A DNA stretch of 32,000 nt from Verrucomicrobiota bacterium (GCA_021294815.2 CP095464.1:660001-692000); one strand, 5' to 3'; counted from the first letter of the stretch, positions 8,398-24,860 are shown. The notes: generated by a model not told the origin, from the sequence alone. Numbers and translations: made by a program.

Positions 8398-8417
8398 CGA
8401 TAGCTCAGTGGTAGAGC
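8398..8417 (+). pseudogene. tRNA 5' fragment (acceptor/D-arm remnant)
   Basis: cgatagctcagtggtagagc matches 19/20 to 8833..8852 of the intact tRNA-Asn. Downstream sequence does not fold into anticodon or T arms. The D-arm is a conserved sequence, so origin from another tRNA cannot be excluded. Confidence 0.55.
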
Positions 8418-8494: not shown

Positions 8495-8653
8495 TCATAA
8501 TTGCGGGCGCTCTATGCTATGATTGCGCTGACGTGAAAGCGACGCAACACAATCACCCAAACCTCCGACCTTCGCAAACGGCGCATACTCCGGCGTTAGC
8601 ATGCAAATTTTTAATGGTATCTTCGCTTTCGGGGCATCTTTTTCCGTCCTCAT
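8495..8653 (-). pseudogene. glgA: Truncated glgA 5' fragment (first ~40 codons only)
   Basis: It translates to MRTEKDAPKAKIPLKICMLTPEYAPFAKVGGLGDCVASLSR, near-identical to the GlgA N-terminus at 3288..4769. It then diverges and stops (QRNHSIERPQL*). Confidence 0.85.
8535..8617. repeat. Direct repeat copy 2 (glgA 5' duplicate)
   Basis: Pairs with 4648..4730 in the same orientation, ~89% identical by manual alignment. Confidence 0.85.
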
Positions 8654-8828: not shown

Positions 8829-8903
<75 letters not shown>

Positions 8904-8974
8904 TGTTGGGATACTTAAATAAATTTTATAAAGAGACTTGACTTTTGCTTGAGACGGTGGTTACAAGGCCGTCT

Positions 8975-10711
8975 ATGGATAGTAAAGATAGTTTAAAAAC
9001 TCGGAAGAGTTGTAAATGTTTGCAAAGTGCGCTTGTAGCATCCCTTTTCTGCTTGGCAAGCTTTTTACATGGAGCTGCACCTTTGAGGTCAGCTACGCTT
9101 TCGGTTGCTCGGAATACACAGAAAATTAATACCGCTCCGAAGCAGTATAAAGATGTGGAAGTTCAGTCAGGAGTAGATGATCCAAATCGGTTCCACGTAG
9201 TTGAGGTTTATGGCGGGAGAGAAAGTGGCTGCGTTTTTGCCTCAGTAATAACGGCGATCGAGACCGAGAAATATCTCAAAGAGCGCTCTGGTATCCCGCT
9301 CGTTGTCGTAGACACAGAAAAGACCGACAATCTACGCGACTGCTATACTAGTACACTTTTGTCACTAGTCAAGATTGGGGCGCAATGCATTAAATCGATT
9401 GATTTCGATGCGAACGGCAAGCCTCATGCCAAGTTTTCATCGTTTAAATTTGCTTTATTAGATGAAGATGGCCAAGAGACGCTTAGAAAATTCGTGCGTG
9501 CATTGGGTGTTGATGGGCTTACTCTAAATGAAGAGACGGAGATTAGCGAGGGAGATTTAGAAGATAGACGAGATGTTTTAATCAAGAAACGAGCAGAACT
9601 AGACGCCAAGCAAGCGAAACTAGATGCTGAGAAGGCAGATCGGGATAGGAAATTGCAGGACTTAGAGGCGGGAATAGCTGCTTGGGATGAACGTATCAGA
9701 GAGAACCCTAATAACCAACACTCTCAGGATTATACTGATTTTCTGAAAAAAGCAACTTCACTAATGAAGCAGATTGAAGAAGAGCGTACGCAATCAATGA
9801 ATGAGCAGTTGCAATTGTTAGAGGAAACTAAGATTCATCTACAAAAAGTACAATGGGAAGCTTGTACTTGGTTATGTGATACGAAAGATTTACCATCCGT
9901 TCTAATCAAATTGGCAAAAGTTTTAGAAGCCTTGTGTTCCTACGCAAAAGAAAAGATAAAAGAATCCGATGAAGCATATGATGCTAACCGATGGAGTGAG
10001 TTTGCCATAAGACAGGCCGAGGACATACGAACAACAGAAGGAATAGGTTCCAACCTTTATGTAGTTTTTGGGATGTTGCCCGCTCCTTATGGAAAGGAAG
10101 GTGAATTGTTTTGCGAGCGTTATACCTTAAATGTGTACAACGAAGATCCTCGAAAGCCCACAAGAGTTATCGTCGAGAAGGATTCTTTTTTGGGCAATAT
10201 TCATATGGTATTAACCGATAGATATTTTTATAAGGAAGGATGTCCGAAGATCGAGTTGAATCTTTTAAGTTGTACTGTAAGTGATCTTAGAGAGCGCGAC
10301 GGACAAAGATATTATGAGTCGTGTGGACACAGTAGACCTCTCATCCGAAAAGAAGATTGCTGTTGGGTTTTATATAGAGATAAAGACGATGAAGAGGGTG
10401 GCATTGCATCGCAGTCCTTTCCCGTAATCGTTAAAAATGATGAAAATTTCGGGGATGATGATAGTGTTCTTAGAAAGAACTATATGGATGCTATCATGGT
10501 GCAATCGGAGGGTGGTACTCCTGGTGCGGAGGGTCAGGAAAAATTTTCTGTCATAGGAACGCCAAACTCATTCTCCAAACCGGCCATTCCACTTGCCTTT
10601 GAGAAAACTACCAAACTTATAAAAAGACCGATTTTGCAATCTTGCAGCTCTCTTTCGAGTTTTTCGTTCTCTTCTAAGTCTTCGCAAATCTTGATTTTTG
10701 TAATATCGTAG
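8975..10711 (+). CDS. Secreted hypothetical protein, divergent paralog C of the Cys...His family with a coiled-coil insertion; 3' end uncertain
   Basis: Start set at ATG 8975 (MDSKDS..., signal-like LVASLFCLASFLHGA). It keeps the family blocks in divergent form: FHVVEVYGGRESGCVFASV, GMLPAPYGKEGELFCERYTLNVY, EKDSFLGN and CGHSRPLIRKEDCCWVLY. A long charged heptad-like insert begins KKRAELDAKQAKLDAEKADRDRKLQDLE. The last ~50-60 codons are low-complexity and overlap a minus-strand ORF. Confidence 0.7.
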   Translation: MDSKDSLKTRKSCKCLQSALVASLFCLASFLHGAAPLRSATLSVARNTQKINTAPKQYKDVEVQSGVDDPNRFHVVEVYGGRESGCVFASVITAIETEKYLKERSGIPLVVVDTEKTDNLRDCYTSTLLSLVKIGAQCIKSIDFDANGKPHAKFSSFKFALLDEDGQETLRKFVRALGVDGLTLNEETEISEGDLEDRRDVLIKKRAELDAKQAKLDAEKADRDRKLQDLEAGIAAWDERIRENPNNQHSQDYTDFLKKATSLMKQIEEERTQSMNEQLQLLEETKIHLQKVQWEACTWLCDTKDLPSVLIKLAKVLEALCSYAKEKIKESDEAYDANRWSEFAIRQAEDIRTTEGIGSNLYVVFGMLPAPYGKEGELFCERYTLNVYNEDPRKPTRVIVEKDSFLGNIHMVLTDRYFYKEGCPKIELNLLSCTVSDLRERDGQRYYESCGHSRPLIRKEDCCWVLYRDKDDEEGGIASQSFPVIVKNDENFGDDDSVLRKNYMDAIMVQSEGGTPGAEGQEKFSVIGTPNSFSKPAIPLAFEKTTKLIKRPILQSCSSLSSFSFSSKSSQILIFVIS

Positions 10712-10969
10712 CCTTGCTCTGAGTTTCTTGTTCTCTTCTTCTAAGTTTTCGCAAATCTTGACGCAAGTATCGAGATTCCTCTGAGAAACTTTCTCAGCTT
10801 GTTTCGCTTTTTCAGTTTGTTCATGCCATGAACACTCTGCAAGTGCAGCAAGCGCAGACTCCCGATTTTTACGAACGCGCAACTGTTTTGAACCAGCATC
10901 GGTAAAATAGGAATCTGTTTTTATCCAACGTAACCAACGGAGCCTTACGATCCAACGGAGCCAACGCAT
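10568..10969 (-). CDS. Hypothetical coiled-coil protein, probably frame-disrupted; boundaries uncertain
   Basis: The plus strand has no long ORF across 10712..11010, whereas the minus-strand ORF reads plausibly (FTDAGSKQLRVRKNRESALAALAECSWHEQTEKAKQAEK...KICENLEEENKKL). I chose ATG 10969 so that it does not overlap the plus-strand ORF at 11059. The tracked ORF extends to 11131. The tandem duplication is read in two different frames. Confidence 0.35.
   Translation of the reverse strand: MRWLRWIVRLRWLRWIKTDSYFTDAGSKQLRVRKNRESALAALAECSWHEQTEKAKQAEKVSQRNLDTCVKICENLEEENKKLRARLRYYKNQDLRRLRRERKTRKRAARLQNRSFYKFGSFLKGKWNGRFGE
10627..10761. repeat. Imperfect tandem duplication, two units with a ~67-nt period
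   Basis: Unit ends ...gttctcttctaagtcttcgcaaatcttga (to 10694) and ...gttctcttcttctaagttttcgcaaatcttga (to 10761). Similarity with small indels extends leftward through gattttgcaat / gatttttgtaat. Confidence 0.7.
10925..10966. repeat. Four CCAACG hexamers (starts at 10925, 10934, 10952, 10961) arranged as two 16-nt units
   Basis: tccaacgtaaccaacg and tccaacggagccaacg match 14/16. They lie ~350 nt upstream of the large terminase gene. Confidence 0.6.
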
Positions 10970-11058
10970 CTGTTCACGGACGGTGATTCCATGGTAGAAT
11001 CGGGACTGTTGTGGCGAGAGACACTTCAAAATTGCTCTTGTCACAGCGTTGCGATTGG

Positions 11059-11316
11059 ATGGATGCTCGAGAACAGTTGGCCCATAGTGCCGTTCAAATT
11101 CAAATAACGCTGACGGCGGCGCTGCTCGCACTCGGGAAAAAGTTCCTCCGCGAAATCCCTCACTTGAGCTTCGCCGACCTCGGCACCGCTCCCGTTACTC
11201 TGCAAAAGCTCATCGGTTGTTATGCCAATATGCAGGCAATCGATCCTAAACTCGGATTCCAAAGCCTCTCAGAAGAGGTGCTTGAGCATATCCAATCGCA
11301 ACTGAATCTGATGTAG
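11059..11316 (+). CDS. Small hypothetical phage protein immediately upstream of terminase (a small-terminase role is possible but unsupported)
   Basis: 85 aa from ATG 11059 (the tracked ORF begins at GTG 11011). It stops 2 nt before the terminase ATG at 11319. No motif recognised. Confidence 0.4.
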   Translation: MDAREQLAHSAVQIQITLTAALLALGKKFLREIPHLSFADLGTAPVTLQKLIGCYANMQAIDPKLGFQSLSEEVLEHIQSQLNLM

Positions 11317-11318
11317 CA

Positions 11319-12716
11319 ATGAGGCATTTCGAGGAAAAGTTTTTCTTGCCCTATCAGCAGCGGTGGATTAACGATCCCGCGCGATTGAAAATCGTCGAAA
11401 AGTCGCGCCAGATCGGGCTTTCGATGGCAACAGCGTACCACCTCGTTCGGGAACATTCCTGCCAAAAGTGCCGGTACGATGCTTGGGTTGCCTCTCGTGA
11501 CGAGGTTCAAGCGAAACTATTTCTGGAAGATTGTCAGAAATTTAGCCAGATTTTACATGTCGTGGCGCAGTATTCTGGACAAACCGTGATTGCCGCTGAT
11601 AAGAAACCGGGAGCAATGGCGCTGCGCTTTAGTAATCATCGAGCCATCCATTCGTTATCCTCGAATCCCGATGCTCAGGCGGGGAAGCGTGGAACGCGGG
11701 TCCTTGATGAATTCGCGCTCCACCCGAATCCACGGTTGCTGTACGCTGCGGCGTATCCGGGGATCACCTGGGGCGGCAAGCTGGAGATTATTTCGACACA
11801 CCGCGGGTCGAATAATTTTTTCTATCAGCTCATTCAGGAGATTACACAAAACGGAAATCCAAAAAATTTTTCCCATCACAAAGTAACGCTTGCCGACGCG
11901 CTTGATGAGGGATTTTTAACGAAATTACAGGCAAAAGCGCTCCCAGATGACCCGATTCGTGATATGGATGCAGCGGAGTATTTTGATTTTATTCGGCGAT
12001 CGTGTCCGGATGCGGAGACATTTCGGCAGGAGTATATGTGCGAGCCGTATGAGGATCAGTCGATCTTTTTACCGACAGAGCTTGTGGATGCAGCGGAACA
12101 GGAAGCGGATATGCCGCCACAGTCGGACCTCTATATGGGAGTGGATATTGGACGCACCGAAGATCGTACCGTATTTTGGATTCTCGCGGCGGTGGAAACG
12201 TCGTTGGTGACAAAAGAGGTTATTGTTCTCCAAAATAAAACATTTTCAGAACAGGAAGCAGTTTTTTACCAATTGCTGGCGCTCCCGAATTTAAGAAGAG
12301 CTTGTATCGATCAAACGGGAATTGGACGGCAATTTGCGGAACGTGCGGTTGAGCGGTTTGGAAACTACCGCGTTGAGGGCGTTACGTTTACAAATGCCGT
12401 CAAGGAGCAGTTGGCGTATCGTCTGCGCTCCGTGTTCGAAGATCACAAAATAAAAATCCCGGCGAGTGAGGCGATCCGTGCCGATTTACGGGCAGTGAAG
12501 CGCGAAAATACATTTACCGGGAAAATCCGCTTTGCGGCCGATCAAAGCGAGTACGGGCATGCCGACCGTTTTTGGGCTTTGGCACTAGCAATTCACGCTG
12601 TGGGCAACGTTCCTGCAACAACTGAATCCTTTTTTGTTAACATACCGAGAAACCATGAAAACATTTTCTCAAATTTCCGACGCACGAATGCAACACTCGA
12701 TGCGTGCGCGATTTAA
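11319..12716 (+). CDS. Phage terminase large subunit
   Basis: 465 aa. The N-terminal FLPYQQRWINDPARLKIVEKSRQIGLSMATAY is a deviant Walker-A-like segment typical of this terminase class. The C-terminal RNaseH-like nuclease motifs are MGVDIGRTEDRTVFWIL, CIDQTGIGRQFAE and GHADRFWALALAIHA. Confidence 0.88.
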   Translation: MRHFEEKFFLPYQQRWINDPARLKIVEKSRQIGLSMATAYHLVREHSCQKCRYDAWVASRDEVQAKLFLEDCQKFSQILHVVAQYSGQTVIAADKKPGAMALRFSNHRAIHSLSSNPDAQAGKRGTRVLDEFALHPNPRLLYAAAYPGITWGGKLEIISTHRGSNNFFYQLIQEITQNGNPKNFSHHKVTLADALDEGFLTKLQAKALPDDPIRDMDAAEYFDFIRRSCPDAETFRQEYMCEPYEDQSIFLPTELVDAAEQEADMPPQSDLYMGVDIGRTEDRTVFWILAAVETSLVTKEVIVLQNKTFSEQEAVFYQLLALPNLRRACIDQTGIGRQFAERAVERFGNYRVEGVTFTNAVKEQLAYRLRSVFEDHKIKIPASEAIRADLRAVKRENTFTGKIRFAADQSEYGHADRFWALALAIHAVGNVPATTESFFVNIPRNHENIFSNFRRTNATLDACAI

Positions 12717-13866
12717 TCCGATCAAATCACTGACGCCGGATTCGCTCTCACGGATGCTCGACGAGTTCGCATCTGGTTATCTCCACTCAACAGCGTTGGT
12801 TTGGGAGGCTATCGAGCATCGCGATGACGTCGTCCAATGCGTTGTCTCCAAAAGAAAAAAATCCGTCGCGCGGCTTAGTTGGGAGATTTTGACCGTAGAC
12901 CAGTCTGCTGAGGCGGTTTTACAAAAACAGGCGCTCGAGTACTTTTATAACAACCTGTCGGCGACTAATGCGTTTGATAAAAATGAACAGGGCGGCGTTG
13001 CACTACTCATTAAACAGATGATGGATGCCGTTGGGAAAAAATACGCGGTTCATGAAATGGTTTTTCAAACACAAGATGCACTCGATATTTTGCCATTTCC
13101 TCGGTTGACAGCGACGTTTCGCTTCGTACCCCTCTGGTTTTTTGAAAATACAACGGGCCAATTGCGATTTTTGGAAAGTGATTACGCCCTGAGCGGAATT
13201 CCTCTGGAAAAAGGGGCGTGGATGATTACCGTTGGTGAAGGGTTGATGGAGGCGACGTCGATCGCGTACCTCTTTAAACATCTCCCGTTACGTGATTGGT
13301 TGGTTTATTGCGAGCGAAATGGGATGCCCGGTGTCAAGGGTGTGACGAATGCACTCCCAGGATCGGCCCAGTGGGAGGCCGCACGTGACGCGGTTGCTGA
13401 TTTTGGTGCCGAGTTTAGTGCCCTGATGTCGCAGGGAACCAATATCGAGGCGATTGATTTGTCGACCCGTGGCGATTTACCGTATCCCGGAATTGTGGAC
13501 CGGATGGACCGCGCGATTGTTGCACTCTGGCGGGGATCGGATCTATCGACACTCTCGCGTACTTCAGGTGCCGGGGCTTCCCTGCAAGGCGATGAGGCCG
13601 CAATATTACTCGAAGATGACGCGCAAATGATCTCGGAAACCCTCAATGAGCAGGTCGATGGCCAGATTATTCGCTATCTATTTGGCGATGTGGCGCAGAA
13701 GGCGTATTTTCGACTGGTTACTACGACTTCGGGAAATCCTGCGGATGAAATCTCGATTTATCGGGCGCTGTATGAAATGGGGGTGCCAATCGCGATCGAA
13801 GATTTGAGGGAAAAATTTGGCCTCTCGACGCCGAGTGCCGAGGAAAGCGTTTTGCAAAAGGCATAG
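12655..13866 (+). CDS. Phage portal protein (Mu gp29 / DUF935-like)
   Basis: 403 aa from ATG 12655, overlapping the terminase 3' end by 62 nt. Its position directly after TerL, its size and the N-terminal RFNPIKSLTPDSLSRMLDEFASGYLHSTALVWEAIEHRDDVVQCVVSKRKKSV resemble DUF935 portals (from memory). Confidence 0.75.
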   Translation: MKTFSQISDARMQHSMRARFNPIKSLTPDSLSRMLDEFASGYLHSTALVWEAIEHRDDVVQCVVSKRKKSVARLSWEILTVDQSAEAVLQKQALEYFYNNLSATNAFDKNEQGGVALLIKQMMDAVGKKYAVHEMVFQTQDALDILPFPRLTATFRFVPLWFFENTTGQLRFLESDYALSGIPLEKGAWMITVGEGLMEATSIAYLFKHLPLRDWLVYCERNGMPGVKGVTNALPGSAQWEAARDAVADFGAEFSALMSQGTNIEAIDLSTRGDLPYPGIVDRMDRAIVALWRGSDLSTLSRTSGAGASLQGDEAAILLEDDAQMISETLNEQVDGQIIRYLFGDVAQKAYFRLVTTTSGNPADEISIYRALYEMGVPIAIEDLREKFGLSTPSAEESVLQKA

Positions 13867-13867
13867 T

Positions 13868-14854
13868 ATGGAAAAACAATGGCTGAAATTAGTGGATTAT
13901 GGTGATTATCCACATGCAGACGGTGTCCAGCGGGTAACTTACACAGCGGCGCTTGAGATGCAAAAACGATTCCGTTCACTCCGCGCGCGTCTCGCACGAA
14001 AATTTGGCGGTATCCCCGTTTATATCGGACATCCCGACGATCGGCATTTTTCGCAACTCCCAGGACATAGTGATACGCGCTCATACGCTTGGGTTCAAGA
14101 TCTCGAGGCGCGCGATGATGGTATCTGGATCTTACCGAAGTGGTCAACCGCTGGGGAGGAAATTTTACAAAATGCGTTCTTTAAGTTCTTGTCACCGCGC
14201 TGGGAAACAAAACGCGAAAATGGGTTTCTCACTCCGATCCGTTTAATTTCTGTGGGGCTTACCAATAATCCCAATATTCCTGGAGAGGCAATTGCAAACC
14301 AAGAACCGCAAGTGTGTCCGGAGGAAAAGGAAGATATTGAGCTGCAAGCATTTCTGGAAAAAACCTTAAATATCCGCTTTCAAGATTCTGATTGGAAAGA
14401 ACAAATCGCGCAGCTCGGGGCACATGCCGAAGCGATTGAAGCGCTGAAAGAAGCGAATAAGGACCTCCAATCCGAGTCCGACCGATTCTATAAATTAGCG
14501 TGCGAGCAGGAACAAAAAATCAAAGAACTAACTGCTGCACTTGTGGATGCTAAGATCGCCTCTGGTGAGCGTTTCGCGAAATTTGCGCTCGATCGTGGCC
14601 TTATCCAGACTGCCGAAGTCGACGAGTGGAAGGAACGCTATATCGCAGACCCGAAAGCCGCGTCTAATGAGCTGCTCGGACAGTCGCAGACGCTCAATAC
14701 GCATTCAAAGACAGAACACCTGGAAAATCGCCACGAACCGACCGATGCGCAAACCCATATTTTGAAACGTGTCCGGGAGCGGATGCAAATGACGGGAGAG
14801 GATTATACCGCGGCGTGGCACTTCGTTCGGCAGAGTACGCCCGTGTTGTTGTAA
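13868..14854 (+). CDS. Head maturation protease / scaffold fusion (Mu gpI-like)
   Basis: ATG 13868 lies 1 nt after the portal stop. The N-terminal WLKLVDYGDYPHADGVQRVTYTAALEMQKRFRSLRARLARKFGGIPVYIGHPDD resembles Mu-like prophage protein I. The C-terminal half is a charged, coiled-coil scaffold-like region (KEANKDLQSESDRFYKLACEQEQKIKELTAAL). Confidence 0.7.
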   Translation: MEKQWLKLVDYGDYPHADGVQRVTYTAALEMQKRFRSLRARLARKFGGIPVYIGHPDDRHFSQLPGHSDTRSYAWVQDLEARDDGIWILPKWSTAGEEILQNAFFKFLSPRWETKRENGFLTPIRLISVGLTNNPNIPGEAIANQEPQVCPEEKEDIELQAFLEKTLNIRFQDSDWKEQIAQLGAHAEAIEALKEANKDLQSESDRFYKLACEQEQKIKELTAALVDAKIASGERFAKFALDRGLIQTAEVDEWKERYIADPKAASNELLGQSQTLNTHSKTEHLENRHEPTDAQTHILKRVRERMQMTGEDYTAAWHFVRQSTPVLL

Positions 14855-14929
14855 ATAAAAAAAGAGATGGGAAAAAACAAAAACAAGATGCCCTAAGGCA
14901 CACTTAGATCGCGCTTTTGCTCTAATTTT

Positions 14930-15346
14930 ATGGATACTCAAATCCTATCAAATGTGGCATTGGGAACGCATGAAGATTGCTTGACCAAAAATGCTCAAAC
15001 CGCGTTGACCGCGTACCGATTAGTTAAAATTGATCCCTCTAACGGTGATCAAGTCATGTGTGCGGGGCCGAATGACTGCGCTTTTGGTGTTACAACCGAT
15101 GAGGCACAGGCCGGCGAAGAGGTCAATATCGCACTTCTCGGATGTTCAAGCACGCTGAAAATTACCACTAGCGGTGCCATTACTTCGGGAGATCTATTGA
15201 TGCCGGGTGATAACGGTACCGTGAGGTCAATGCCAACGGAAGAAGGTCAATATATGTGTATTGGGATTGCGTTGTCAGGGGCTGCAAGTGGTGGTACTGT
15301 CGAGGTGCTTACGTCCTTCCCTTCGCAATGCTCTGTAACTGCTTAA
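14930..15346 (+). CDS. Head decoration/cement-like protein (DUF2190-like)
   Basis: 138 aa, Gly/Ala-rich beta-type sequence (AFGVTTDEAQAGEEVNIALLG...ITSGDLLMPGDNGTV...IGIALSGAASGGTVEVL). It sits between the protease and capsid genes, as DUF2190 genes usually do. Confidence 0.6.
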   Translation: MDTQILSNVALGTHEDCLTKNAQTALTAYRLVKIDPSNGDQVMCAGPNDCAFGVTTDEAQAGEEVNIALLGCSSTLKITTSGAITSGDLLMPGDNGTVRSMPTEEGQYMCIGIALSGAASGGTVEVLTSFPSQCSVTA

Positions 15347-15365
15347 ACGTTTTGGATTTTTACTT

Positions 15366-16334
15366 ATGAATACCTATGAAGTTTTGCCCAAAGATGACGG
15401 TTTTCAGGATTGTGGGACGGTGTGTGCGGCAAATGAGTCGCGTTTTACTGCAGCACATTATTCAGAGCCTCTCACCGCTTTTACCGTCGGATGGAAAGAT
15501 CGAGAAGAAATCGAAGAAGTCTTAAACTTTATCGCGCCAGTTGTCCCCGTTGCACGACGTTTTGAGTTTAAGATCGCCGACCCTAACGAGGCTTTCTTAT
15601 CGGAGACCGACGATATTCGTTCCATCGGATCTTCGTTTAAGCGCGTTGAGTTTACCGGTACCTCTGTGACGTCCAAGACATACAACAAAGGTCTAACTGT
15701 TCGTGTCGATCATGATGATGTTGCCGGGGACGACTGGCGGGAACGCTATGTACAGCTCCTGCTACAACGCCTCTATCGCAATGAGTTACGTCGGGCAATA
15801 TCCGCTTTAGCTGCGAATGCTGTATCGGTTAAGGAGCAGTATAAGTGGGGAACGACTGGAACACCCAATCCGGATGCGGATATCCGCGCCGAACTTGAGG
15901 CCGCTACCGATCTGACCGGGATACGTCCTAACCGAGTGATTATCGGAGAGGGCGCTTGGGATATGCGTTCCAATTCCTATGATTGCCAAAATAACGCAGG
16001 TGCAAACCGCTCCGCATCGTTGACCCTAGAGGAGCTCTCACGAAAGCTGTTTGTCGACGAAACCCGTATCATTAGTGCGCGGTACCAATCTGGCGATGTC
16101 AAGCAAGAGACGTTCTTAGGCAATACAATCTACACCTTCTTCACCAATAACAAAATTATGAAAGATGAACCGGCCAACATCAAACGCTTTGTAACGCCGG
16201 TCGACGGAAGTTCTCCGTTCCGTGTGTATCTCGAGGAACATAGCAAGTTCAGCGATATCACGGTCGAACATTATAGTAATATCGTCATTACCTCGCCAAC
16301 GGGTATTCGGAAGCTTGTTGTGGCGGCAGCATAA
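15366..16334 (+). CDS. Major capsid protein (presumed HK97 fold)
   Basis: 322 aa. The call is by position (after protease/scaffold and decoration genes, before the adaptor) and size. It is followed by a strong stem-loop. Confidence 0.65.
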   Translation: MNTYEVLPKDDGFQDCGTVCAANESRFTAAHYSEPLTAFTVGWKDREEIEEVLNFIAPVVPVARRFEFKIADPNEAFLSETDDIRSIGSSFKRVEFTGTSVTSKTYNKGLTVRVDHDDVAGDDWRERYVQLLLQRLYRNELRRAISALAANAVSVKEQYKWGTTGTPNPDADIRAELEAATDLTGIRPNRVIIGEGAWDMRSNSYDCQNNAGANRSASLTLEELSRKLFVDETRIISARYQSGDVKQETFLGNTIYTFFTNNKIMKDEPANIKRFVTPVDGSSPFRVYLEEHSKFSDITVEHYSNIVITSPTGIRKLVVAAA

Positions 16335-16344
16335 AACCCAAAGT

Positions 16345-16367
16345 GCTATGGCCTTCGTGGCCATAGC
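16345..16367 (+). terminator. Perfect 9-bp stem-loop just after the capsid gene (attenuator or RNA-stabilising hairpin; no U tract)
   Basis: GCTATGGCC-ttcgt-GGCCATAGC begins 11 nt after the capsid stop. It is followed by CATCAAAAAAATG, not by a T run. Confidence 0.4.
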
Positions 16368-16377
16368 CATCAAAAAA

Positions 16378-16830
16378 ATGATTACGAATTGGATTAATGT
16401 TACAATCGAAGACCTCTATACTTATCTCGCAGCCCCACAGGTCGAAGCATTACGGCGTTGTGCGGTCGCCAAATCCCAACCTGATCCGGTAGCAGATGCG
16501 ATTCAAAATGTCGTGCTGAGTATTCGTGCTTACATTGTGAGCAACAAACGGAATGTCTTGAGCCAATCGCCATATGCGATCCCACCGGAATTAAAAAGTG
16601 ATGCCTGTGTACTGATACTTGAAGTTGCACAGCTACGGATTCCGGGTTTTCGGCTTACAAGTGACCAGGTCCGCCTTGTTGAGGACGCACGTGGGAAAAT
16701 GCAAAAAATTGTTAGCGGCGAATTTGTCGTATCACTCCCGAATGATCGCGCTATGGAGCCCGAAAAGGCGATGGAAGTTGTCGCATCACGCCGGCGAGTG
16801 ATTACCGGAAAAACCTTGGAGGGATTTTAA
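16378..16830 (+). CDS. Head-tail adaptor/connector-like protein (Mu gp36 / DUF1320-like)
   Basis: I prefer the start at ATG 16378, after the hairpin. The alternative ATG 16348 is buried in the stem. ITNWINVTIEDLYTYLAAPQVEAL...DPVADAIQNVVLSIRAYI resembles DUF1320 proteins (from memory). Confidence 0.5.
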   Translation: MITNWINVTIEDLYTYLAAPQVEALRRCAVAKSQPDPVADAIQNVVLSIRAYIVSNKRNVLSQSPYAIPPELKSDACVLILEVAQLRIPGFRLTSDQVRLVEDARGKMQKIVSGEFVVSLPNDRAMEPEKAMEVVASRRRVITGKTLEGF

Positions 16831-16831
16831 A

Positions 16832-17284
16832 ATGGGGCAGCCGTTAGAAGGAATTTTGGAACAACTGCAGGAGCGCGTATATGACGCATTACGGGCACAA
16901 CATGATCTCCAAAAAGTTGCGATTGCGATGCGAAAACGAAGCTCGCTCGAATTATTTTGTGAGCAACTCATACAACAAGGTTTCGGTGAAGGAATTTTTA
17001 TCGATGCACCATTGCCGAAAGCCATCGTTTCAGGTGTTCCTGGACCAGTCTACCGGGAAATCGCCTTCGTCGTCCAAGTGATTGAAAACGTTGCGACCAA
17101 TGAAAGTGGCAGTAGTGGGATGTTGGTTGCGGAAAAAATCGCGCATCAGCTACACCTCCGAGAATTTGTATTTGGCGATCAATCTTGGATCGTGAGCTGC
17201 CGTGAAAAAGACCCCTGGCAGTTCGAGGGCGATGCGTTTAAAAATACTATCACGCTTCACTTTGCGACGATGTACTCCTTTTAA
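16832..17284 (+). CDS. Phage head-completion/neck hypothetical protein
   Basis: 150 aa. It starts 1 nt after the previous stop. Function is inferred only from position. Confidence 0.55.
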   Translation: MGQPLEGILEQLQERVYDALRAQHDLQKVAIAMRKRSSLELFCEQLIQQGFGEGIFIDAPLPKAIVSGVPGPVYREIAFVVQVIENVATNESGSSGMLVAEKIAHQLHLREFVFGDQSWIVSCREKDPWQFEGDAFKNTITLHFATMYSF

Positions 17285-17295
17285 CGCACGAGAAA

Positions 17296-17709
17296 ATGAA
17301 AATTATTTGGGGAGAATGGGAATTGGCACGTGGAGCTGCGTATGGAGAAGTCCCACAGGATCTAAAAATCTCAGGCCAACGGTCGGTACAGCTGTTAACG
17401 ACGGTCCGTGGGGAGACCTCAAAGGCACTGAACCGCGGCAATCTATTGATGAATTTAGAGTTCCGTGTACGTAAAAAACATCCGACGGCGGAAATTGCTC
17501 AAGAAGATGCGCTGCGCCATGCCTCGGAATTAAAAACCGAAACCGCAAACCTGATGCTCGTCGGTGAATCTGGGAAAACCACATTTCAGCTGAAAGATGC
17601 TGTGATCGCAAACATCATATCCAGCAGTAACGGCAATATCGCAGAGCATTTTTATAAAATTGTCGGAGGTCGTGTGTGTACCACCGAAAGCGCAAACAGT
17701 TCTTTTTAA
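17296..17709 (+). CDS. Phage structural hypothetical protein
   Basis: 137 aa, co-directional within the tightly packed module. No motif recognised. Confidence 0.5.
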   Translation: MKIIWGEWELARGAAYGEVPQDLKISGQRSVQLLTTVRGETSKALNRGNLLMNLEFRVRKKHPTAEIAQEDALRHASELKTETANLMLVGESGKTTFQLKDAVIANIISSSNGNIAEHFYKIVGGRVCTTESANSSF

Positions 17710-17719
17710 GAAAAACAGT

Positions 17720-19384
17720 ATGGAAACCATAGAACGTAGTGTAGTCCGCGTCGCTCTCGATGTGTTGTCATTCGATGCGCCGAAAGATGTTATCCGAAAG
17801 CAACTTGTACAATTTTGGCGCTGTAATGATCTCGAATTCCAAATTGGAATTTTTCGCAATGAGATGCCAGTCGATGTCCGTGATTGGGATGCCATCTATC
17901 TCTCGATTCGAGAACTCGACCAGGGCAATCCGCCATCGGGAGGTTCGCCAACATTGATGCTAGGTTCGACGCAATATCTGGATTCTACCGTGACGCTTGA
18001 GACGTGGCAAAGCGGAGCACAACAACACGCAGTTATTACGTTTTCCTCAGAGGGAAACGCCCTCGAGGCGGGAGAGTATTGGTTGAGTCTGTGGGCTGTA
18101 ACGACAGCACAGAGGACTGTCACATTGGGCTCGGGAGTGTGTAAAATTCTTGAAAATGGTGGCGTTTCAACAACACCGCCAGAGCCCAAAGATGTCTATT
18201 ACACCGCCGAGGTTTGTGACCAGCGATTTGCATTTAAAGGCGAAGGCGGTGAAGGGGGAACAACAGTCGTTTCAGGCCTTCAACAGAAAGACCTCGATCG
18301 GGCACTTAAGGATTACTATACCGCTACCGTCTGCGATCAACGGTTTTCGCGCAAGAGCGAGGTTGGTCCGAGTTCGGGATTACAACAAAGCGATCTCGAT
18401 ACTGCGCTGCGGAATTACTACCTAAAAACGGAGATCGATACCCAGTTGTCTTCTTATGCCAAGCACAGCGCCCTGGACAACTATTACACCGTGGCAGCCT
18501 GTGACGCCAAATTCCAAAATTATTATTCGAAAAGCGAAATTACGACACAATTTGTACCCTATGCCAAAACTTCCGATATTGCGAAACAGCTCAATCTTTA
18601 TGCAACGCAGGATCAATTAACAACGCAGCTGCAAAATTACTATACGTCTACGGAGTGTGAAGAGCGATTTGAGTTGAAAGGAGAGGGTGGAGGCGGCGGT
18701 GAAATCAGTCCAAAAGAGAAGGGAAGTTTACTTCTTGGCGACGGCGAACAGGCGGTAATTCTCCCCGCGGGAACAGTGCAGCAGGTTCTTGTTGCGGACC
18801 CGACAAAAACACTCGGTGCAGCATGGACAGATTACCCCTGGCATCGCATCAGTGAGTACCAAATAACCGATGCCGTTCCCAATCTCGTCTTCGAAAATAA
18901 TTTTGATTTCGGACGTTGGTGGCACTACCGGCTCGATTTCGATTTTTTAGAGACATCAATCGTTGGAACTCAAGTGCGGATGCAGTACGGGTACGATCAA
19001 AACGGCAGTACAATCTGGGAAAACAACATCAATGAGTACTGCTTTAGCACGGCCGATTTCGCCGGAAGCGCTGGCCGATATGCCGCCTACACCTTCCTGT
19101 ACGGCTATTTTGGCTTCGGTAATGAGGAAAAGTTTTACCGCAACGATGGAGGTTACATTCACGGTAGTGTCGATTTTTGGAATGATGGAAATGCCGCACA
19201 TCGCGTCTACGCCCAAGCACGCACCAATAGTTTCCGTATCGCCAATGACACACCAGTGGCGACTGGAGGTATTTACAATTTTGTCTATTACAACGTGGGT
19301 GCTCACGTCATCAGTGCGTTTAAATTGATGCCGGCGGAAGGAACGTTCAAAATGGGGAGGTTCGCGCTCTATGGAATTCGCTGA
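17720..19384 (+). CDS. Tail fibre / receptor-binding-like protein with internal repeats
   Basis: 554 aa from ATG 17720. The central region carries repeated GLQQxDLDxAL-xYYTxxxC[DE]xxF and NYY[ST]K[ST]EI[DT]TQ motifs with Gly runs (GEGGEGG, GEGGGGG). The C-terminal GSLLLGDGEQAVILPAGTVQQVLVADPTKTLGAAW is a motif I associate with phage fibre heads. Confidence 0.65.
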   Translation: METIERSVVRVALDVLSFDAPKDVIRKQLVQFWRCNDLEFQIGIFRNEMPVDVRDWDAIYLSIRELDQGNPPSGGSPTLMLGSTQYLDSTVTLETWQSGAQQHAVITFSSEGNALEAGEYWLSLWAVTTAQRTVTLGSGVCKILENGGVSTTPPEPKDVYYTAEVCDQRFAFKGEGGEGGTTVVSGLQQKDLDRALKDYYTATVCDQRFSRKSEVGPSSGLQQSDLDTALRNYYLKTEIDTQLSSYAKHSALDNYYTVAACDAKFQNYYSKSEITTQFVPYAKTSDIAKQLNLYATQDQLTTQLQNYYTSTECEERFELKGEGGGGGEISPKEKGSLLLGDGEQAVILPAGTVQQVLVADPTKTLGAAWTDYPWHRISEYQITDAVPNLVFENNFDFGRWWHYRLDFDFLETSIVGTQVRMQYGYDQNGSTIWENNINEYCFSTADFAGSAGRYAAYTFLYGYFGFGNEEKFYRNDGGYIHGSVDFWNDGNAAHRVYAQARTNSFRIANDTPVATGGIYNFVYYNVGAHVISAFKLMPAEGTFKMGRFALYGIR

Positions 19385-19385
19385 G

Positions 19386-19514
19386 ATGGAATCGTTATTG
19401 TCGCATCTCGAAGCGCTTGTAGAGGAATTACAGGAACGTTTGAATGCCTTGGATAATGTCGTGGATGCGGAAATGGAGTCCTTGCAGCTTCAAATCGATA
19501 ATTTGAGGAATTAA
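19386..19514 (+). CDS. Small coiled-coil protein (42 aa), not in the ORF track
   Basis: MESLLSHLEALVEELQERLNALDNVVDAEMESLQLQIDNLRN. ATG 19386 lies 1 nt after the fibre stop, and its TAA ends 1 nt before the next ATG (19516). Confidence 0.5.
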   Translation: MESLLSHLEALVEELQERLNALDNVVDAEMESLQLQIDNLRN

Positions 19515-19515
19515 G

Positions 19516-21252
19516 ATGTGGTTTTTAACGTACCAAGGAACACGCAAGTGCTTCGAAGACTGGGGTTTGAGCGGTGTTATCCGAAAATTAAAGAACCAAT
19601 CCGTCGATATTGTTACTGTTCGTGTCGCGGGAAATACGGCCGATACTCCACTGCTCTTTTCGGCGAATGAAACCATTCAGATTGATCGCGATGGGTCGTA
19701 TTGGTTTACGGGGATTGTGACGAAAACGCCGGTGTATGGTAGCGCTCAGGAGGGTTATCAAGAATACACTTTTTCAGGACCTTGGTGGTATCTCGATCAC
19801 ATCATTTATCAACAGACCTGGAAGGAGGCCGATCTTGAAGATCCGGAAAAACTCAATGATATCCGAAAAAGCCGACTGATTTTAGGGCAGGATCATAAAG
19901 GAAATCCGATGACAATCGGTGCCCAAATTGCAGAGATTATCGACTATGTGAATCAGGTTTTTGCTCTTCCCGTTATGGCGCTATCCAGTGAGCTCGACCT
20001 GCCCGTCTATATTCCTTTCGATGAATGCCACGACCTCTCTTGTGCGGAGGCGATCAAACGTTTGTTACGTTGGGTACCTGATGTGATCGCATTTTTCGAT
20101 TATTCGGAAGCGGTACCCATATTGCATTTTCGCCGTCGAGCGCAATTGCCCCCTGTGTCGCTAGATATCGAGGAACTACACGCGTTCCAGCTGACGCCCC
20201 GTTACGATTTACAGATCCCAGCCGTTGTTTTGAAGTTTGAAAAGACGCATCGCAACAATGGCCAATCATGGAAAACGCTTGATGTCCAAAAATACCCGGC
20301 GTCAGCGACGGGGTGTGAACCGCAGGCACTTGTAATGACAATTGCGTTGGAGGGGGCCGAGTCGACCTATATCCGCCAAGAAGTTGAAACAGAGCCAATC
20401 CAAATGAGTAGCGCGACATGGTGGAAAAAACATCTTCCCGGATTACAAGCGGTCGACAATCTCCGTATCGAAGAGCCCACGCGCGAAGGTTCGTTGCCCA
20501 ATGAACTCATTTCGGGTTCAGTCGCGAATTGGATGAATTGCCAGGTTCATCGGGAGACCGTAACTGCTAAAGTTTCTTACGAAACGGAAGACGAGGCGGT
20601 TTCGCGTCGTTTGGTGGCGGTGAAAATTAATGCAACTGATGCGACGAGTAAGACTTACCGCAGCCTGGTTTCTTTTACCGGCGAAGAAACTGTGCCGGAT
20701 CAATTGGCGGAACAGGTTTATCAAGGCGTTTCGGTTTTACACTATGAAGGGAAGATCGTCTTGACACAGCCTGAGGTCGGAGGCGATTTTTTAGGCAAAA
20801 CCATCAACTTAACCCACGGTCGCACAGAATGGGAATCGATGAATGCCGTGGTACAAAGCGTCGCCGAATCGGTGGATACCGGGACGACAACCATCATATT
20901 GGGCCCGGCGAAACACCTCGGCCCTAACGATCTATCGGAGCTTACGAAGTCGAACCGCCGGCGTACGCGAAGCCGTAATTTTCATACCCGAAGCACGGGA
21001 GAGGCGAGTGGGAGTGCCTGTGTCGAACAAGGGCGGTTTGGACATGTCGAGAACTCGGCTTACGGTTCCGGATGTTGGCAAAAAATGACCTTTAGCGATA
21101 CCGAAAATGTAGAGCGTAAGATCATCATTGATGCCAGTGAGCTTGAAAAAGACGTTGTTGTACGGCTGCGCGAGGAAGACGTTAGTGACTCCGGTGTTTT
21201 GAAAAAACGTTACTCGCTCGCGAGTGATCCCTTTGTGGCAACAGAATCATGA
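19516..21252 (+). CDS. Large tail/hub-like structural protein
   Basis: 578 aa. The N-terminal pattern (ETIQIDRDGSYWFTGIVTKTPVYGSAQEGYQEYTFSGPWWYLDHIIY) resembles hub or gpD-like tail proteins. The assignment is weak. Confidence 0.45.
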   Translation: MWFLTYQGTRKCFEDWGLSGVIRKLKNQSVDIVTVRVAGNTADTPLLFSANETIQIDRDGSYWFTGIVTKTPVYGSAQEGYQEYTFSGPWWYLDHIIYQQTWKEADLEDPEKLNDIRKSRLILGQDHKGNPMTIGAQIAEIIDYVNQVFALPVMALSSELDLPVYIPFDECHDLSCAEAIKRLLRWVPDVIAFFDYSEAVPILHFRRRAQLPPVSLDIEELHAFQLTPRYDLQIPAVVLKFEKTHRNNGQSWKTLDVQKYPASATGCEPQALVMTIALEGAESTYIRQEVETEPIQMSSATWWKKHLPGLQAVDNLRIEEPTREGSLPNELISGSVANWMNCQVHRETVTAKVSYETEDEAVSRRLVAVKINATDATSKTYRSLVSFTGEETVPDQLAEQVYQGVSVLHYEGKIVLTQPEVGGDFLGKTINLTHGRTEWESMNAVVQSVAESVDTGTTTIILGPAKHLGPNDLSELTKSNRRRTRSRNFHTRSTGEASGSACVEQGRFGHVENSAYGSGCWQKMTFSDTENVERKIIIDASELEKDVVVRLREEDVSDSGVLKKRYSLASDPFVATES

Positions 21253-21857
21253 CGCGCTTTACGCCCTTTCTCTGCCGCGTCACCCCGTACGGTACGCCTT
21301 TTTTTGTTCCACTCGTAACCAATGACGGCATCACATCGATTTTAAGCGGGTTGGATGCAGATTCGCTTTGCCGTTGCTATTGGCTTTTAGAACGCGTCGA
21401 TATCCGTTACCAAATGACATTTAGTGGATCAATTATTTTAGAAAACGAACTCTCGATCGGTGGCATGTACGCAACACCGCCCATTCGGCGGCTTCTTGGC
21501 ATTCCCGAGCTCAATGCTTCGATGATTCATGCACTTTATGGTGTGTATTCAGAAGGAAAAATCGATTTCTCGACAGTTTACGCACAAGCGGACCAACAAT
21601 ACGCCGTGCGCTTTGATTTTACCGTCTGTAACGCTGATGAACCCAAAGAGGAGAGCAATTTTCTGCTCTCATTCTACCGCAGTGCGGGGGCGAGTGATCG
21701 ACGTAACCGCTGCAAGACGCGTAACTTCAGCTTTTTGGGGAAAACGTATACCGCCTACCTCAACTATAACAGTTCTGTTTGGGCCGATACTGATATCTCA
21801 CTAGACAGTTTTTCGCTCCAAACGGTCTTTTTTGAGAATCCGCAAGAAGCGAGTTAA
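21249..21857 (+). CDS. Phage-associated hypothetical protein
   Basis: 202 aa. An ATGA start/stop overlap with the upstream gene suggests translational coupling. Confidence 0.5.
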   Translation: MTRFTPFLCRVTPYGTPFFVPLVTNDGITSILSGLDADSLCRCYWLLERVDIRYQMTFSGSIILENELSIGGMYATPPIRRLLGIPELNASMIHALYGVYSEGKIDFSTVYAQADQQYAVRFDFTVCNADEPKEESNFLLSFYRSAGASDRRNRCKTRNFSFLGKTYTAYLNYNSSVWADTDISLDSFSLQTVFFENPQEAS

Positions 21858-21861
21858 GAAA

Positions 21862-22701
21862 TTAGATCTCCAGTCTCATTGCGGGATGTTTTACCTTTAC
21901 GTCGGCATTGATCGGGAGCTGATCGATATTCCGCATCCAAGCGACTTCAATTTGCGCTTTTTCCTTAGTTTCCTTGTGGAGTTTTTCCGCATTCGGCGCG
22001 TGGCTATTTTTACCATCTTTGTCGGTGATGACAATGTCTTGGGTGTGTCCATCGACAATTAAACGGAGCGCACAATAATCTGGCTGACGTGCGAGACTGT
22101 AGCGCTTACGGACATCGCCGGGAATAAAGAAGTATACCGAGGCCAATTCGTTGTTTTTGAGACAGATACAGGTGCATTCGGAGCGCATGAGCAACATCCT
22201 TCCTGAAGGAAGACACCCATTGAATCCAACATAGAGGCGTATTTTACAATTGTCGGCCCATTCCTGACCCTTAACAAGGGCTTGTGGTTTGAGATCAATA
22301 CGGACCTGTCCCCATTTCTTCATTGCGATCATGAGCCGACTCGTATCAAACTTGACGCGTTCGATATCGATTCTCGACGTCGCCTGAAAGTTGCTCGGCT
22401 TTTGAGCATCCGGTAAAATATTGGCGTCGACGAGCTCTTTTTTTGCCTGCTCTGTAGGTCCCGATAACATTTGCGACATTTCGCTCACTAGTGCCTTATG
22501 TTCTGCTGGAAGAGCTTCGGGCTGTGGTAGGATTTTAACCGCTTGAGCGTCAATCTGAGAATCCGATTTAGCCTCGTGAACGACTACCGTATTTGTTTCC
22601 GTTTGTAGTTGGTTTTCGGGATTTTCGACTCCATAAAGCGCACACGGGGCGCAGATGCACAAAAATTGGAGACAACGGCCAAAAAAATGGGTTTCGTTCA
22701 T
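21862..22701 (-). CDS. Secreted hypothetical protein
   Basis: 279 aa with a hydrophobic, Cys-rich N-terminus (GRCLQFLCICAPCALYG). It is convergent with the phage module, and its stop lies 4 nt from the module's last stop. Confidence 0.55.
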   Translation of the reverse strand: MNETHFFGRCLQFLCICAPCALYGVENPENQLQTETNTVVVHEAKSDSQIDAQAVKILPQPEALPAEHKALVSEMSQMLSGPTEQAKKELVDANILPDAQKPSNFQATSRIDIERVKFDTSRLMIAMKKWGQVRIDLKPQALVKGQEWADNCKIRLYVGFNGCLPSGRMLLMRSECTCICLKNNELASVYFFIPGDVRKRYSLARQPDYCALRLIVDGHTQDIVITDKDGKNSHAPNAEKLHKETKEKAQIEVAWMRNIDQLPINADVKVKHPAMRLEI

Positions 22702-23051: not shown

Positions 23052-24173
23052 ATGTACGAAATCGTCGAGCACGAGGAGCTCCACATTTTTGAAGATCTTT
23101 CTGTGGTCCATGTGTGCTGTTCCGGAATGTGGGCACTGCGCAGTCACGTCGAGGATTTACAGGAACTCGGCGATTTAAAATCCGTCAAACAAATCATTCT
23201 GGATGCCGACAAGATGGTAAAATTGAGTTCGGCGTTTTTGATATTTTTACAGCATCTTCAGCAATTGTCGCAAAAAGCCAAAATCCCATTGGTGACAACA
23301 AATCTGCCGAGTGGGGCGCAAAAGATTTTTAATCTTCAGCAGGCGCAATTACCGCAGCAGGCGAAAAAGCCAATGCCAGATAATTTTTTTTACCAGGTAG
23401 GCGTAGAGGTCATGGCGCAGAGCCGAACGTTTTACCAAGCGCTAAAGTTTTTCGGCCAGGTTCTAACCGCTATCAGCCGTGCGGTGGTCCGTCCCTCACT
23501 CCGTATCTGGGCACGTGTGATCCCATTTTTCCAGTCAACGGGTGTTGAAGCGCTGCCGGTCGTAACGCTGATCAGTGCACTTGTGGGGTTGATTATGGCG
23601 TTTGTGAGCGTCGTGCAGCTTGAGCGCTTTGGGGCGAGCATCTATGTTGCAGATCTCGTTGCCCTAGCGATGACGCGTGAAATGGGGTGCTTGATGATCG
23701 GTGTGATTATCGCTGGCCGAACGGGGGCCGCTTTTGCCGCAACCATTGGGAGTATGCAAGTCAACGAGGAGCTCGATGCGCTGCAGACCTTTGGTATCGA
23801 TCGGATTTCTTACCTCGTGTTACCGCGAGTTGTCGCTTTGGCCCTGATGATGCCGTTACTTTGCATTTTTGCAGATGTGATTGGGATCTTAGGTGGGATG
23901 TTTTCGGCGCTACCGTTTATTCCCGGAAGCATGACACAGTACCTGGCGGAGACAAAAAAGGCCCTCGGCATGGGCGACATTTTGTTAGGCTTGATTAAGA
24001 GTTTCTGTTTTGGGGGAATTATTGCCGGAATTGGTTGTTTCCAAGGTGCATGTTGTGGGCGTAATGCGACGGCAGTCGGACAGGCTTCGACGACAGCCGT
24101 TGTTCAAGGAATTACCTGGATTATTATTGCCGATGCGATCTTTGCCTTAATAACGACAGCGTTAGGGATTTAA
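23052..24173 (+). CDS. mlaE: MlaE/YrbE-family ABC permease with an N-terminal STAS-like extension
   Basis: The C-terminal ~260 aa are typical MlaE (GVEALPVVTLISALVGLIMAFVSVVQLERFGASIYVADLVALAMTREMGCLMIGVIIAGRTGAAFAATIGSMQVNEELDALQTFGIDRISYLVLPRV). The N-terminal ~110 aa look like a STAS/MlaB-type domain. ATG 23052 is preferred over TTG 23043. Confidence 0.85.
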   Translation: MYEIVEHEELHIFEDLSVVHVCCSGMWALRSHVEDLQELGDLKSVKQIILDADKMVKLSSAFLIFLQHLQQLSQKAKIPLVTTNLPSGAQKIFNLQQAQLPQQAKKPMPDNFFYQVGVEVMAQSRTFYQALKFFGQVLTAISRAVVRPSLRIWARVIPFFQSTGVEALPVVTLISALVGLIMAFVSVVQLERFGASIYVADLVALAMTREMGCLMIGVIIAGRTGAAFAATIGSMQVNEELDALQTFGIDRISYLVLPRVVALALMMPLLCIFADVIGILGGMFSALPFIPGSMTQYLAETKKALGMGDILLGLIKSFCFGGIIAGIGCFQGACCGRNATAVGQASTTAVVQGITWIIIADAIFALITTALGI

Positions 24174-24853: not shown

Positions 24854-24860
24854 GCAAAAG

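Follow-up and report, generated by a model that had tools for sequence, protein, structure and literature searches.

Positions 11,059 to 21,857 of a 32,000-nucleotide stretch of a Verrucomicrobiota genome (GCA_021294815.2, CP095464.1:660001-692000; the whole stretch is termed ‘the window’ below) hold 13 tightly packed, co-directional genes on the + strand, ~11 kb in all, which encode phage structural proteins and which we refer to as the module. With moderate confidence, we regard it as a domesticated phage structural module, fixed in the chromosome and inherited vertically, whose particles would resemble gene transfer agents (GTAs) and carry host DNA to related cells. Among the kinds of domesticated particle locus a GTA-like one is the most likely; we infer the particles, their cargo, the architecture of the tail and the transfer itself. 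The original prediction for this DNA had described 13 co-directional open reading frames (ORFs) here, correctly, and had left two readings of them, a recently truncated prophage or a particle locus maintained by the host. The second is now strongly supported, and the first is rejected by synteny, chromosomal position, selection, and synonymous divergence equal to that of the flanks. To our knowledge, few tailed phages have been domesticated into host-owned, DNA-carrying particles, and none in Verrucomicrobiota; nor did we find literature linking GTAs to Verrucomicrobia, Opitutales or termite-gut Puniceicoccales.

Chromosomal position, selection and descent

Relatives were sought by searching species-representative genomes, one per species, with the capsid protein. 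This returned 44 loci (designated by L numbers) in 43 other genomes, all of them metagenome-assembled genomes (MAGs) of Opitutales/Puniceicoccales, mostly from termite gut, at 62-97% identity. Gene order is the same in all of these loci, there is one module copy per genome, and, by hidden Markov models (HMMs) of each family, nearly every module gene is, in nearly every locus, one intact ORF that covers about 95-100% of its model. Two further ‘families’, c26 and c128, proved to be shadow ORFs antisense to the conserved capsid and TerL genes (L038 6863-8197 (-), L018 4786-6390 (-)).

The module lies between housekeeping genes. In the window these are LysR, a DUF748 protein, an N-methyl-motif protein, GlgA and tRNA-Asn upstream, and MlaE, an ABC ATPase, tRNA-Gln, TrpS/TyrS and an MFS transporter downstream; in the relatives they directly adjoin the module and include LptD-like, MiaA, RNase D-like, PlsC, BaxI, PRPP synthetase, SurA-like, RNase HII, DeoC, Fe-ADH, ComM and PilT genes. 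Flanks are held in common within subclades and partly between them, ComM lying upstream in four loci and PlsC in eight. Pfam and PHROG scans gave no integrase, transposase, repressor, replication or lysis family match among the flanking ORFs of the window, as had been predicted, and no integrase, replication, regulator or lysis gene in the flanks (±10 kb) of the relatives. Five flanking ORFs in the window have no Pfam match of any kind. No direct repeats of at least 12 nt bracket the cluster, no att-like repeats were found, and the GC content of the module, overall and at third codon positions (GC3), is that of its housekeeping flanks.

The position itself is conserved. On a 757-kb scaffold (L047) the module occupies the orthologous position, in the order N_methyl-GlgA / module / d279 ... 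MlaE-ABC-TrpS-MFS, where d279 encodes a secreted protein adjoining the module. The module proteins of this genome and the window are 34-77% identical (TerL, 63%; portal, 75%; capsid, 77%; hub, 54%), and the host proteins around them 44-70% identical (GlgA, 63%; MlaE, 53%; ABC, 44%; TrpS, 70%; MFS, 62%).

The original prediction had proposed that synteny and the ratio of non-synonymous to synonymous substitution rates (dN/dS) be compared among relatives. Ratios were estimated pairwise by the method of Nei and Gojobori (NG86), and only pairs with dS of 0.05-1.5 were kept. Median dN/dS lies at 0.05-0.19 across all 13 families of the module and at 0.06-0.16 in the host genes that flank it; between the window and its closest relative it is 0.03-0.26, and values for individual genes are given in Table 1. 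The module is thus under purifying selection like the host genes beside it. The Walker A-like, Walker B, coupling and nuclease motifs of TerL are conserved in at least 90% of 27 homologues. Module and host have also diverged together. In the seven-genome subclade that shares both flanks, module dS follows flank dS (r = 0.985; ratio 0.93, range 0.79-1.12), in 21 pairs that are not independent and that are driven partly by one divergent genome, L023. Synteny, the position in L047, dN/dS, dS and the capsid tree (see below) together place the module among loci that, like GTAs, are inherited vertically and kept by purifying selection on the chromosome.

These observations decide the fate of the truncated prophage. 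Prophage remnants are common, and the head genes of the module are of Mu type, which speaks for such an origin, but the module is intact in 43 other species genomes, every gene has a dN/dS of 0.05-0.19, its composition is host-like, and it sits at the orthologous position in a genome whose TrpS is only 70% identical. The prediction itself had named complete prophages of 35-45 kb in relatives, together with neutral drift, as evidence that would tell against domestication; in close relatives the module is not embedded in such prophages, this copy does not drift neutrally, and only distant relatives, outside the compact clade, are phage-sized. The chromosome, moreover, probably measures less than 1 Mb, and DNA of no use would not be expected to last in one so small (PMC12306168). 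That the module is recently truncated and decaying is accordingly rejected, its probability being close to nil.

The small size of the host genome bears on function too. Proteins g09 and g12 are identical to GenBank UPA28288 and UPA28290, from a Verrucomicrobiota MAG (locus tag LW808; 878,461-bp contig). Members of the Opitutales family UBA9783 live in animal guts and have genomes <1 Mb and competence genes; the account of them never uses the word ‘phage’ (PMC12306168). At least some members of the clade that carries the module, the window's organism probably among them, have genomes under 1 Mb, and an intact, phage-derived operon of 11 kb in so small a genome would argue for function.

Gene identities, predicted folds and a proposed particle

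Profile searches name six of the 13 genes (Table 1) and bear out the TerL, DUF935-like portal, Mu gpI-like protease, decoration-like protein and capsid of the original prediction. The capsid, which is also assigned to phrog_1005 / Phage_capsid_4, belongs to a small family, with 427 clusters at 50% identity among 1.84 billion representative proteins. The other seven genes (g01, g07-g09 and g11-g13) have no Pfam or PHROG match. With homologue-supported starts, the gaps between genes are 1-75 nt rather than 0-75, and the overlaps that had been predicted occur at g10/g11 and g12/g13.

Table 1. Coordinates of the module genes and of two adjoining features, counted from the first letter of the window. 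The starts at 11059, 13868, 16378 and 17720 are backed by homologues
Feature	Position	Strand	dN/dS	Evidence or remark
Promoter-like site TTCACG-16-TAGAAT with TG extension	10973..11000	+		Just upstream of g01
g01, small helical protein	11059..11316	+	0.095 (u11, the g01 family)	Directly before TerL; u11/g01 family, C-terminal motif EEQLxLL
TerL (large terminase)	11319..12716	+	0.08	Terminase_6N/6C; phrog_5909 1e-36
Portal, Mu gp29/DUF935 type	12634..13866	+	0.055	Portal_Mu 2.2e-61
Head maturation protease/scaffold fusion, Mu gpI type	13868..14854	+	0.17	Mu-like_Pro 2e-16; phrog_328 1.6e-21; ORF opens at 13817, start taken as 13868
Capsid cement/decoration protein	14930..15346	+		Phage_cement_2 7.6e-11; phrog_673 3e-15
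Major capsid protein, HK97-fold family	15366..16334	+	0.053	phrog_1005 2e-15; family profile against PDB 3bjq 4e-7
g07, head-tail adaptor candidate, Mu gp36-like	16378..16830	+	0.09	Weak Phage_Mu_Gp36 match of homologues in L045, L098
g08, connector/neck candidate	16832..17284	+	0.10	Conserved, intact in all loci
g09, predicted tail-tube fold (tube / Dit-like ring), 137 aa	17296..17709	+		AlphaFold2 and Foldseek
g10, fibre	17720..19384	+		N-terminal anchor domain, repeats, variable distal domain
g11, 47-aa coiled coil	19371..19514	+		C-terminal INNLR motif; immediately upstream of hub
g12, central tail hub/spike base (gp27, Mu gp44, VgrG, Tal family), 578 aa	19516..21252	+		Match of predicted fold
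g13, conserved 202-aa protein after hub	21249..21857	+	0.15	Tail tip or baseplate accessory candidate by position only
d279, secreted protein	21862..22701	-		Neighbour conserved in the window's subclade and L047; outside the module

Predicted structures account for two of the seven. The AlphaFold2 model of g12 (mean confidence score, pLDDT, 87; 62-sequence alignment) matches, in Foldseek searches of the PDB at probability 1.0 and E 7e-13 to 1e-9, the spikes of extracellular contractile injection systems (eCIS) including the Photorhabdus virulence cassette (PVC) and the antifeeding prophage (AFP), the MuSo2 43-kDa tail protein, Mu gp44 and VgrG, and in BFVD it matches entries annotated as tail protein, Mu gpP and protein D. 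By its modelled fold, g12 is a hub of the gp27/Mu gp44/VgrG type, in keeping with the ‘hub-like’ label first given to it. The model of g09 (pLDDT 84) matches the tube proteins of PVC/AFP, phage 812, siphophage R4C and the particle of the Rhodobacter capsulatus GTA (RcGTA; 6tba/6toa), as well as Hcp and lambda gpV (probability about 1; E 1e-4 to 1e-2), and g09 is predicted to have a tail-tube fold.

Judged by these models, the tail is made of long-tail components, namely a tube fold together with a gp27/VgrG-type hub, and the earlier description of a ‘short-tail module’ no longer fits; with these two folds present, the tail is not of the podovirus type, and no nozzle proteins are among the top Foldseek matches. 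A tail tube, sheath and tape measure had all been thought missing: a tube fold has now turned up in the 137-aa g09, and Pfam and PHROG searches of the module proteins, with fold searches of g09 and g12, disclosed no tape measure, sheath or identified terminator.

In the fibre, g10, a conserved N-terminal anchor domain of 160 aa is followed by YYT..ECD..F repeats and then by a distal domain that varies. Phage_head_fibr is matched by five of the 28 members of the family (3.6e-10), which upholds the label ‘fibre’, and Gp53-like_C by one. Between loci its length runs from 450 to 736 aa, and it is the most variable gene of the module. The coiled coil next to it, g11, is a real, conserved gene, as predicted, of 47 rather than 42 aa; it is present in nearly all loci, always just before the hub, and has weak matches to trimerisation motifs. 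That it acts as a miniature tape measure or plug is speculation. In several subclades an extra gene of ~100-137 aa lies between the fibre and g11 (e.g. L021 13839-14252 and L008 14547-14849); it is not in the window, has no profile match, and contains an R..R..LL..SDW-type motif, reminiscent of tail-fibre assembly chaperones.

The remaining small genes are also conserved. Gene g07 is kept in all loci and retains its ‘adaptor’ label through the weak Mu gp36 match of distant relatives, g08 is in all loci too, and g13 is present wherever the contig extends far enough. Gene g01 and a family of 120-130-aa proteins, u11, are joined by HMM, and in the alignment both end in the same motif (Table 1). 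By position only, g01 is a small-terminase candidate; hhalign comparison of the g01/u11 family with the Sf6-type TerS of an Akkermansia phage revealed no similarity. Likewise, no match came from profile searches of g07, g08, g09, g12, g13, full-length g10 and its N-terminal domain against PDB sequences, nor when the g09 tube profile was compared by hhalign with g08, g13 and the N-terminal domain of g10, and u12, d279 and alternative upstream small genes have no Pfam or PHROG match. The promoter-like site ahead of g01 is only positionally suggestive, because a scan of the region for promoters and terminators found such sites no more often than shuffled sequence would lead one to expect.

From these parts a particle can be proposed. 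Its ancestor would have been a Verrucomicrobia-infecting phage lineage with a Mu-type portal and protease, a cement protein and an HK97-fold capsid, which lost its integration, recombination/replication and lysis genes, a recognisable TerS, and part of its tail region, and then passed by vertical descent through a clade of gut-associated Opitutales/Puniceicoccales. The operon would be expressed by the host. Heads would be assembled on the portal by the protease/scaffold, capsid and cement proteins; DNA would be packaged by TerL, perhaps assisted by the small upstream protein; and g07 and g08 would close the head. A minimal tail might consist of one or a few rings of the g09 tube fold capped by a trimeric g12 hub, perhaps with g11 and g13 included, and the variable fibre g10 would bind the recipient. 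The strong constraint on TerL, the portal and the capsid set, and the conserved TerL motifs, point to heads filled with DNA. In Pfam and PHROG scans of the window and of the relatives' flanks the module is, as in GTAs, a phage-derived structural cluster with no replication, integration or switch genes of its own, and, since it has no replication origin or packaging-specific genes either, its particles would carry host DNA, as those of a GTA do.

Selection and vertical inheritance are, by themselves, silent on cargo and target, and the module might be domesticated and selected for something other than the transfer of host DNA: as a killing particle directed at competitors, a vehicle that brings DNA or protein to a eukaryotic or bacterial partner, or a defence device that packages or breaks down DNA when a phage infects. 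We consider this unlikely, yet the most serious of the alternatives. The fibre is the most variable gene, as expected of a part that recognizes a changing surface; the hub belongs to the VgrG/eCIS spike family; and the secreted kinase and secreted-protein paralogues beside the module (see below) suggest a lifestyle dependent on a partner. Against it, TerL with its conserved catalytic motifs, the portal and the full, strongly constrained capsid set point to DNA-filled heads. Tailocins and eCIS are capsid-free and depend on a sheath or a long tube, neither of which the searches recovered here, and what the module shares with them is confined to the hub and tube folds.

Several points weigh against the GTA-like reading, in addition to the dependence among dS pairs already mentioned. 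The evidence as a whole derives from MAGs, crude ORF calls and pairwise NG86 estimates, with dS saturated in deep pairs. Flank make-up varies between subclades, and a few relocations of the module between them may have taken place. Five loci of one deep subclade (L034, L035, L037, L038 and L043) are partial: L034 is without TerL, L035 has only portal to capsid, L037 only cement to g13, and L038 and L043 only cement to g09, where they stop. Some lineages have therefore split or lost parts of the module. The break in L038 and L043 was ancestral to both, because the genes downstream are identical in kind. What remains at the partial loci is intact and still looks constrained (the L033 and L037 capsids are 81% identical, with dS saturated). 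Neither the window nor the ±10-kb flanks of the relatives contain lysis genes, a regulator or a recognisable small terminase, though further loci may lie elsewhere in the genome; and, with tape measure, sheath and terminator not found, the proposed minimal tail has no solved precedent among the systems compared.

Phage relatives and known particle systems

A search of a phage database with the capsid gave no match, and the hub had one faint match, Akkermansia phage DTMo-2021a (CP084202.1; 31.9 kb), the nearest complete phage relative. This phage has homologous portal, protease, capsid and g07-like proteins, TerL and cement ORFs at matching positions, the same head order, and a 714-aa hub that closes the tail region. 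It differs in possessing a tyrosine integrase, RecT-like, PD-(D/E)XK and methyltransferase genes and an Sf6-type TerS, and in the distance between capsid and hub, about 12 kb compared with 3.2 kb in the window. Descent from a Mu-like transposable phage, which was first suggested, is not borne out: the nearest complete phage uses a tyrosine integrase and not a transposase. The window has no transposase A/B, c repressor, Mu F (gp30), or contractile or long tail module, and the Mu-type features of the module are confined to the portal, the protease and possibly the gp36-like adaptor. We also considered, and set aside, ancestry from a BPP-1-like (Bordetella) podovirus, prompted by the cement protein and by Mtd_N in one relative (L045); the folds of tube and hub speak against a tail of podovirus type.

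In IMG/VR, 47 contigs, the longest of 59 kb, carry the capsid at 35-61% identity. Those designated L056-L096 share the head module, and many also g08, g09 and g10 in the same order, but they are phage-sized (30-59 kb), have 1-3 kb of extra genes interspersed, and fall outside the compact clade on the capsid tree. This neighbour-joining tree unites all compact chromosomal loci in a single clade, with the expanded viral contigs branching around it, which fits a single event of loss and compaction followed by vertical descent. The distance from capsid to g09 is about 0.95-1.45 kb in compact loci and 2-8 kb in viral contigs. One IMG/VR relative (L052 9926-12001) has two tandem copies of the capsid gene (HMM 4e-142 and 1e-110).

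Some compact copies, too, are classed as viral contigs by IMG/VR (L050-L055), and this, with flanks that differ between subclades and half-modules at some loci, might suggest an element that is mobile but not autonomous (a satellite, or a phage that is split or defective) and that moves by means of a helper phage or of genes elsewhere in the genome. We judge this improbable. The module has no integrase, replication gene or att repeat and one copy per genome; it occupies an identical chromosomal position in genomes whose proteins are only 44-77% identical; its dS equals that of its flanks; and the compact loci are monophyletic. The capsid-forming satellites known to us have an integrase and no tail genes. 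The module, when compared with capsid-forming phage-inducible chromosomal islands (cf-PICI), has neither integrase, replication gene nor flanking repeats, and it has the tail genes g09, g10 and g12.

The GTA-like reading invites comparison above all with RcGTA and the RcGTA-like clusters of the alphaproteobacteria. In common with these, the module is a compact (about 11-15 kb), co-directional head-tail operon without integration, replication or lysis genes; it has a fixed chromosomal locus, vertical inheritance, purifying selection and host-like base composition; a small, unrecognisable protein stands at the TerS position; and the tail-tube chain of RcGTA is one of the tube proteins that g09 matches. 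The portal, protease and capsid of RcGTA are of the HK97 type. Those of the module match Portal_Mu, Mu-like_Pro and phrog_1005, the portal and protease being of Mu type, and a cement protein is present, so that the ancestry is independent, the module lies outside the RcGTA-like family, and only a generic tube fold is shared. The module was not seen to encode a tape measure, a distal-tail protein or anything megatron-like. It occurs, furthermore, in Verrucomicrobiota, and DNA transfer, which is proven for RcGTA, is only proposed for the module. BaGTA (Bartonella), VSH-1 (Brachyspira) and PBSX (Bacillus) are likewise phage-derived, host-maintained particles that package host DNA, and BaGTA occurs in host-associated bacteria with small genomes. 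These differ from the module in that their tails are long or contractile and lysis genes are retained within the locus or close to it, and our searches detected no sequence relationship between them and it.

Neighbouring genes, sister elements and implications

Entry of RcGTA DNA into recipients uses competence genes. In four relatives (L027, L028, L031 and L040) the module is immediately preceded by a gene for a ComM-type, Mg-chelatase-like protein, ComM being annotated as a competence protein; the adjacency may be coincidence. On the other side, d279 has tblastn and HMM matches in L001, L004, L006, L044, L047 and L048 (dN/dS 0.077 against L044).

Two groups of paralogues of low GC flank the module in the window, and neither is at the same position in L047. 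Between GlgA and the module are three paralogues with signal peptides and no Pfam match (4885-6372, 6703-8343 and 8945-10711; GC3 0.35-0.38), the first two 31% identical, which look like a recently expanded secreted or effector-like family. An 88-nt direct repeat (4644-4731 and 8531-8618; 90% identity) lies upstream of the first and third, and is probably a duplicated promoter or 5' region. Between ABC/tRNA-Gln and TrpS are three eukaryote-like Ser/Thr kinase paralogues with N-terminal signal-like sequences (24987-26402, 26691-27782 and 27860-29395 (-)), of which the first and third are 34% identical; these are possible secreted effectors.

The only Rfam matches in the window are two tRNAs. 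A 20-nt copy (95%) of the 5'/D-arm part of tRNA-Asn (8829-8903) occurs at 8398-8417, 435 nt upstream of that tRNA; neither ARAGORN nor Rfam calls a tRNA there, and the copy is a fragment of a tRNA or else resembles the common D-arm consensus by chance. The tRNA-Asn was considered as an integration site and discarded: the module is 2 kb off, and L047 carries the module with neither the tRNA nor the secreted paralogues between it and GlgA. Two ORF calls are probably over-extended or spurious, that of the ABC ATPase (24170-24892 (-)), which extends into tRNA-Gln (24861-24934), and a 187-aa ORF (10568-11131 (-)), which overlaps the third secreted paralogue at its end and g01 at its start and is 89% conserved, compared with ~97% in real genes.

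A second head-tail cluster occurs in three larger genomes (L045, 1-14728; L097; L098), one of them a 4.07-Mb contig, at a fixed position directly upstream of miaA-hflX-radC-lpxA. Its portal and protease are, like those of the module, of Mu type; it also encodes a capsid, an adaptor resembling gp36, a protein resembling g09, and a g12-like hub (719 aa; 38% identity), and its proteins are as conserved as the host flanks (capsid, 94-97%; HflX, 89-90%). It differs in its TerL, which is lambda GpA-type (729 aa), in extra CHB_HEX_C, Mtd_N and Avd-like 23S_rRNA_IVP genes, and in a tailspike downstream of the hub that is swapped between genomes (K1-lyase/GDSL versus pectate-lyase). This suggests that the phenomenon is wider in the phylum, though the region upstream of TerL lies outside our view and a complete prophage is possible. 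Hubs resembling g12 (627-637 aa; 34-35% identity) are found with no capsid genes nearby in L046 (3448-8073) and L099 (7736-18997), one in a Kiritimatiellae contig beside restriction/defence genes and the other beside helix-turn-helix regulators and an AAA_22 protein. Given these non-capsid contexts they were not counted as copies of the module, and possibly belong to a different hub-containing device.

A broader proposal we put forward tentatively, as plausible though short of probable: that this is the first GTA of the Planctomycetes–Verrucomicrobia–Chlamydiae superphylum, with an independent origin from a Mu-type head, a miniaturised tail of tube-fold ring(s) and a VgrG-type hub in which g11 stands in for a tape measure, and a role, kept by strong selection, in recombination among otherwise clonal gut Opitutales with genomes <1 Mb, the sister element at miaA marking an old, phylum-wide domestication. 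The signature is unusually clean, with a fixed position, housekeeping-like dN/dS and dS equal to that of the flanks, in bacteria that are apparently shedding most of their other genes. Whether a tail can be built from a tube protein and a hub with no tape measure is a question that can now be tested. If the particles transfer DNA, they would provide a route of recombination for gut symbionts with reduced genomes, and structural biology and engineering would gain a natural head-tail machine pared down to 13 genes in 11 kb.

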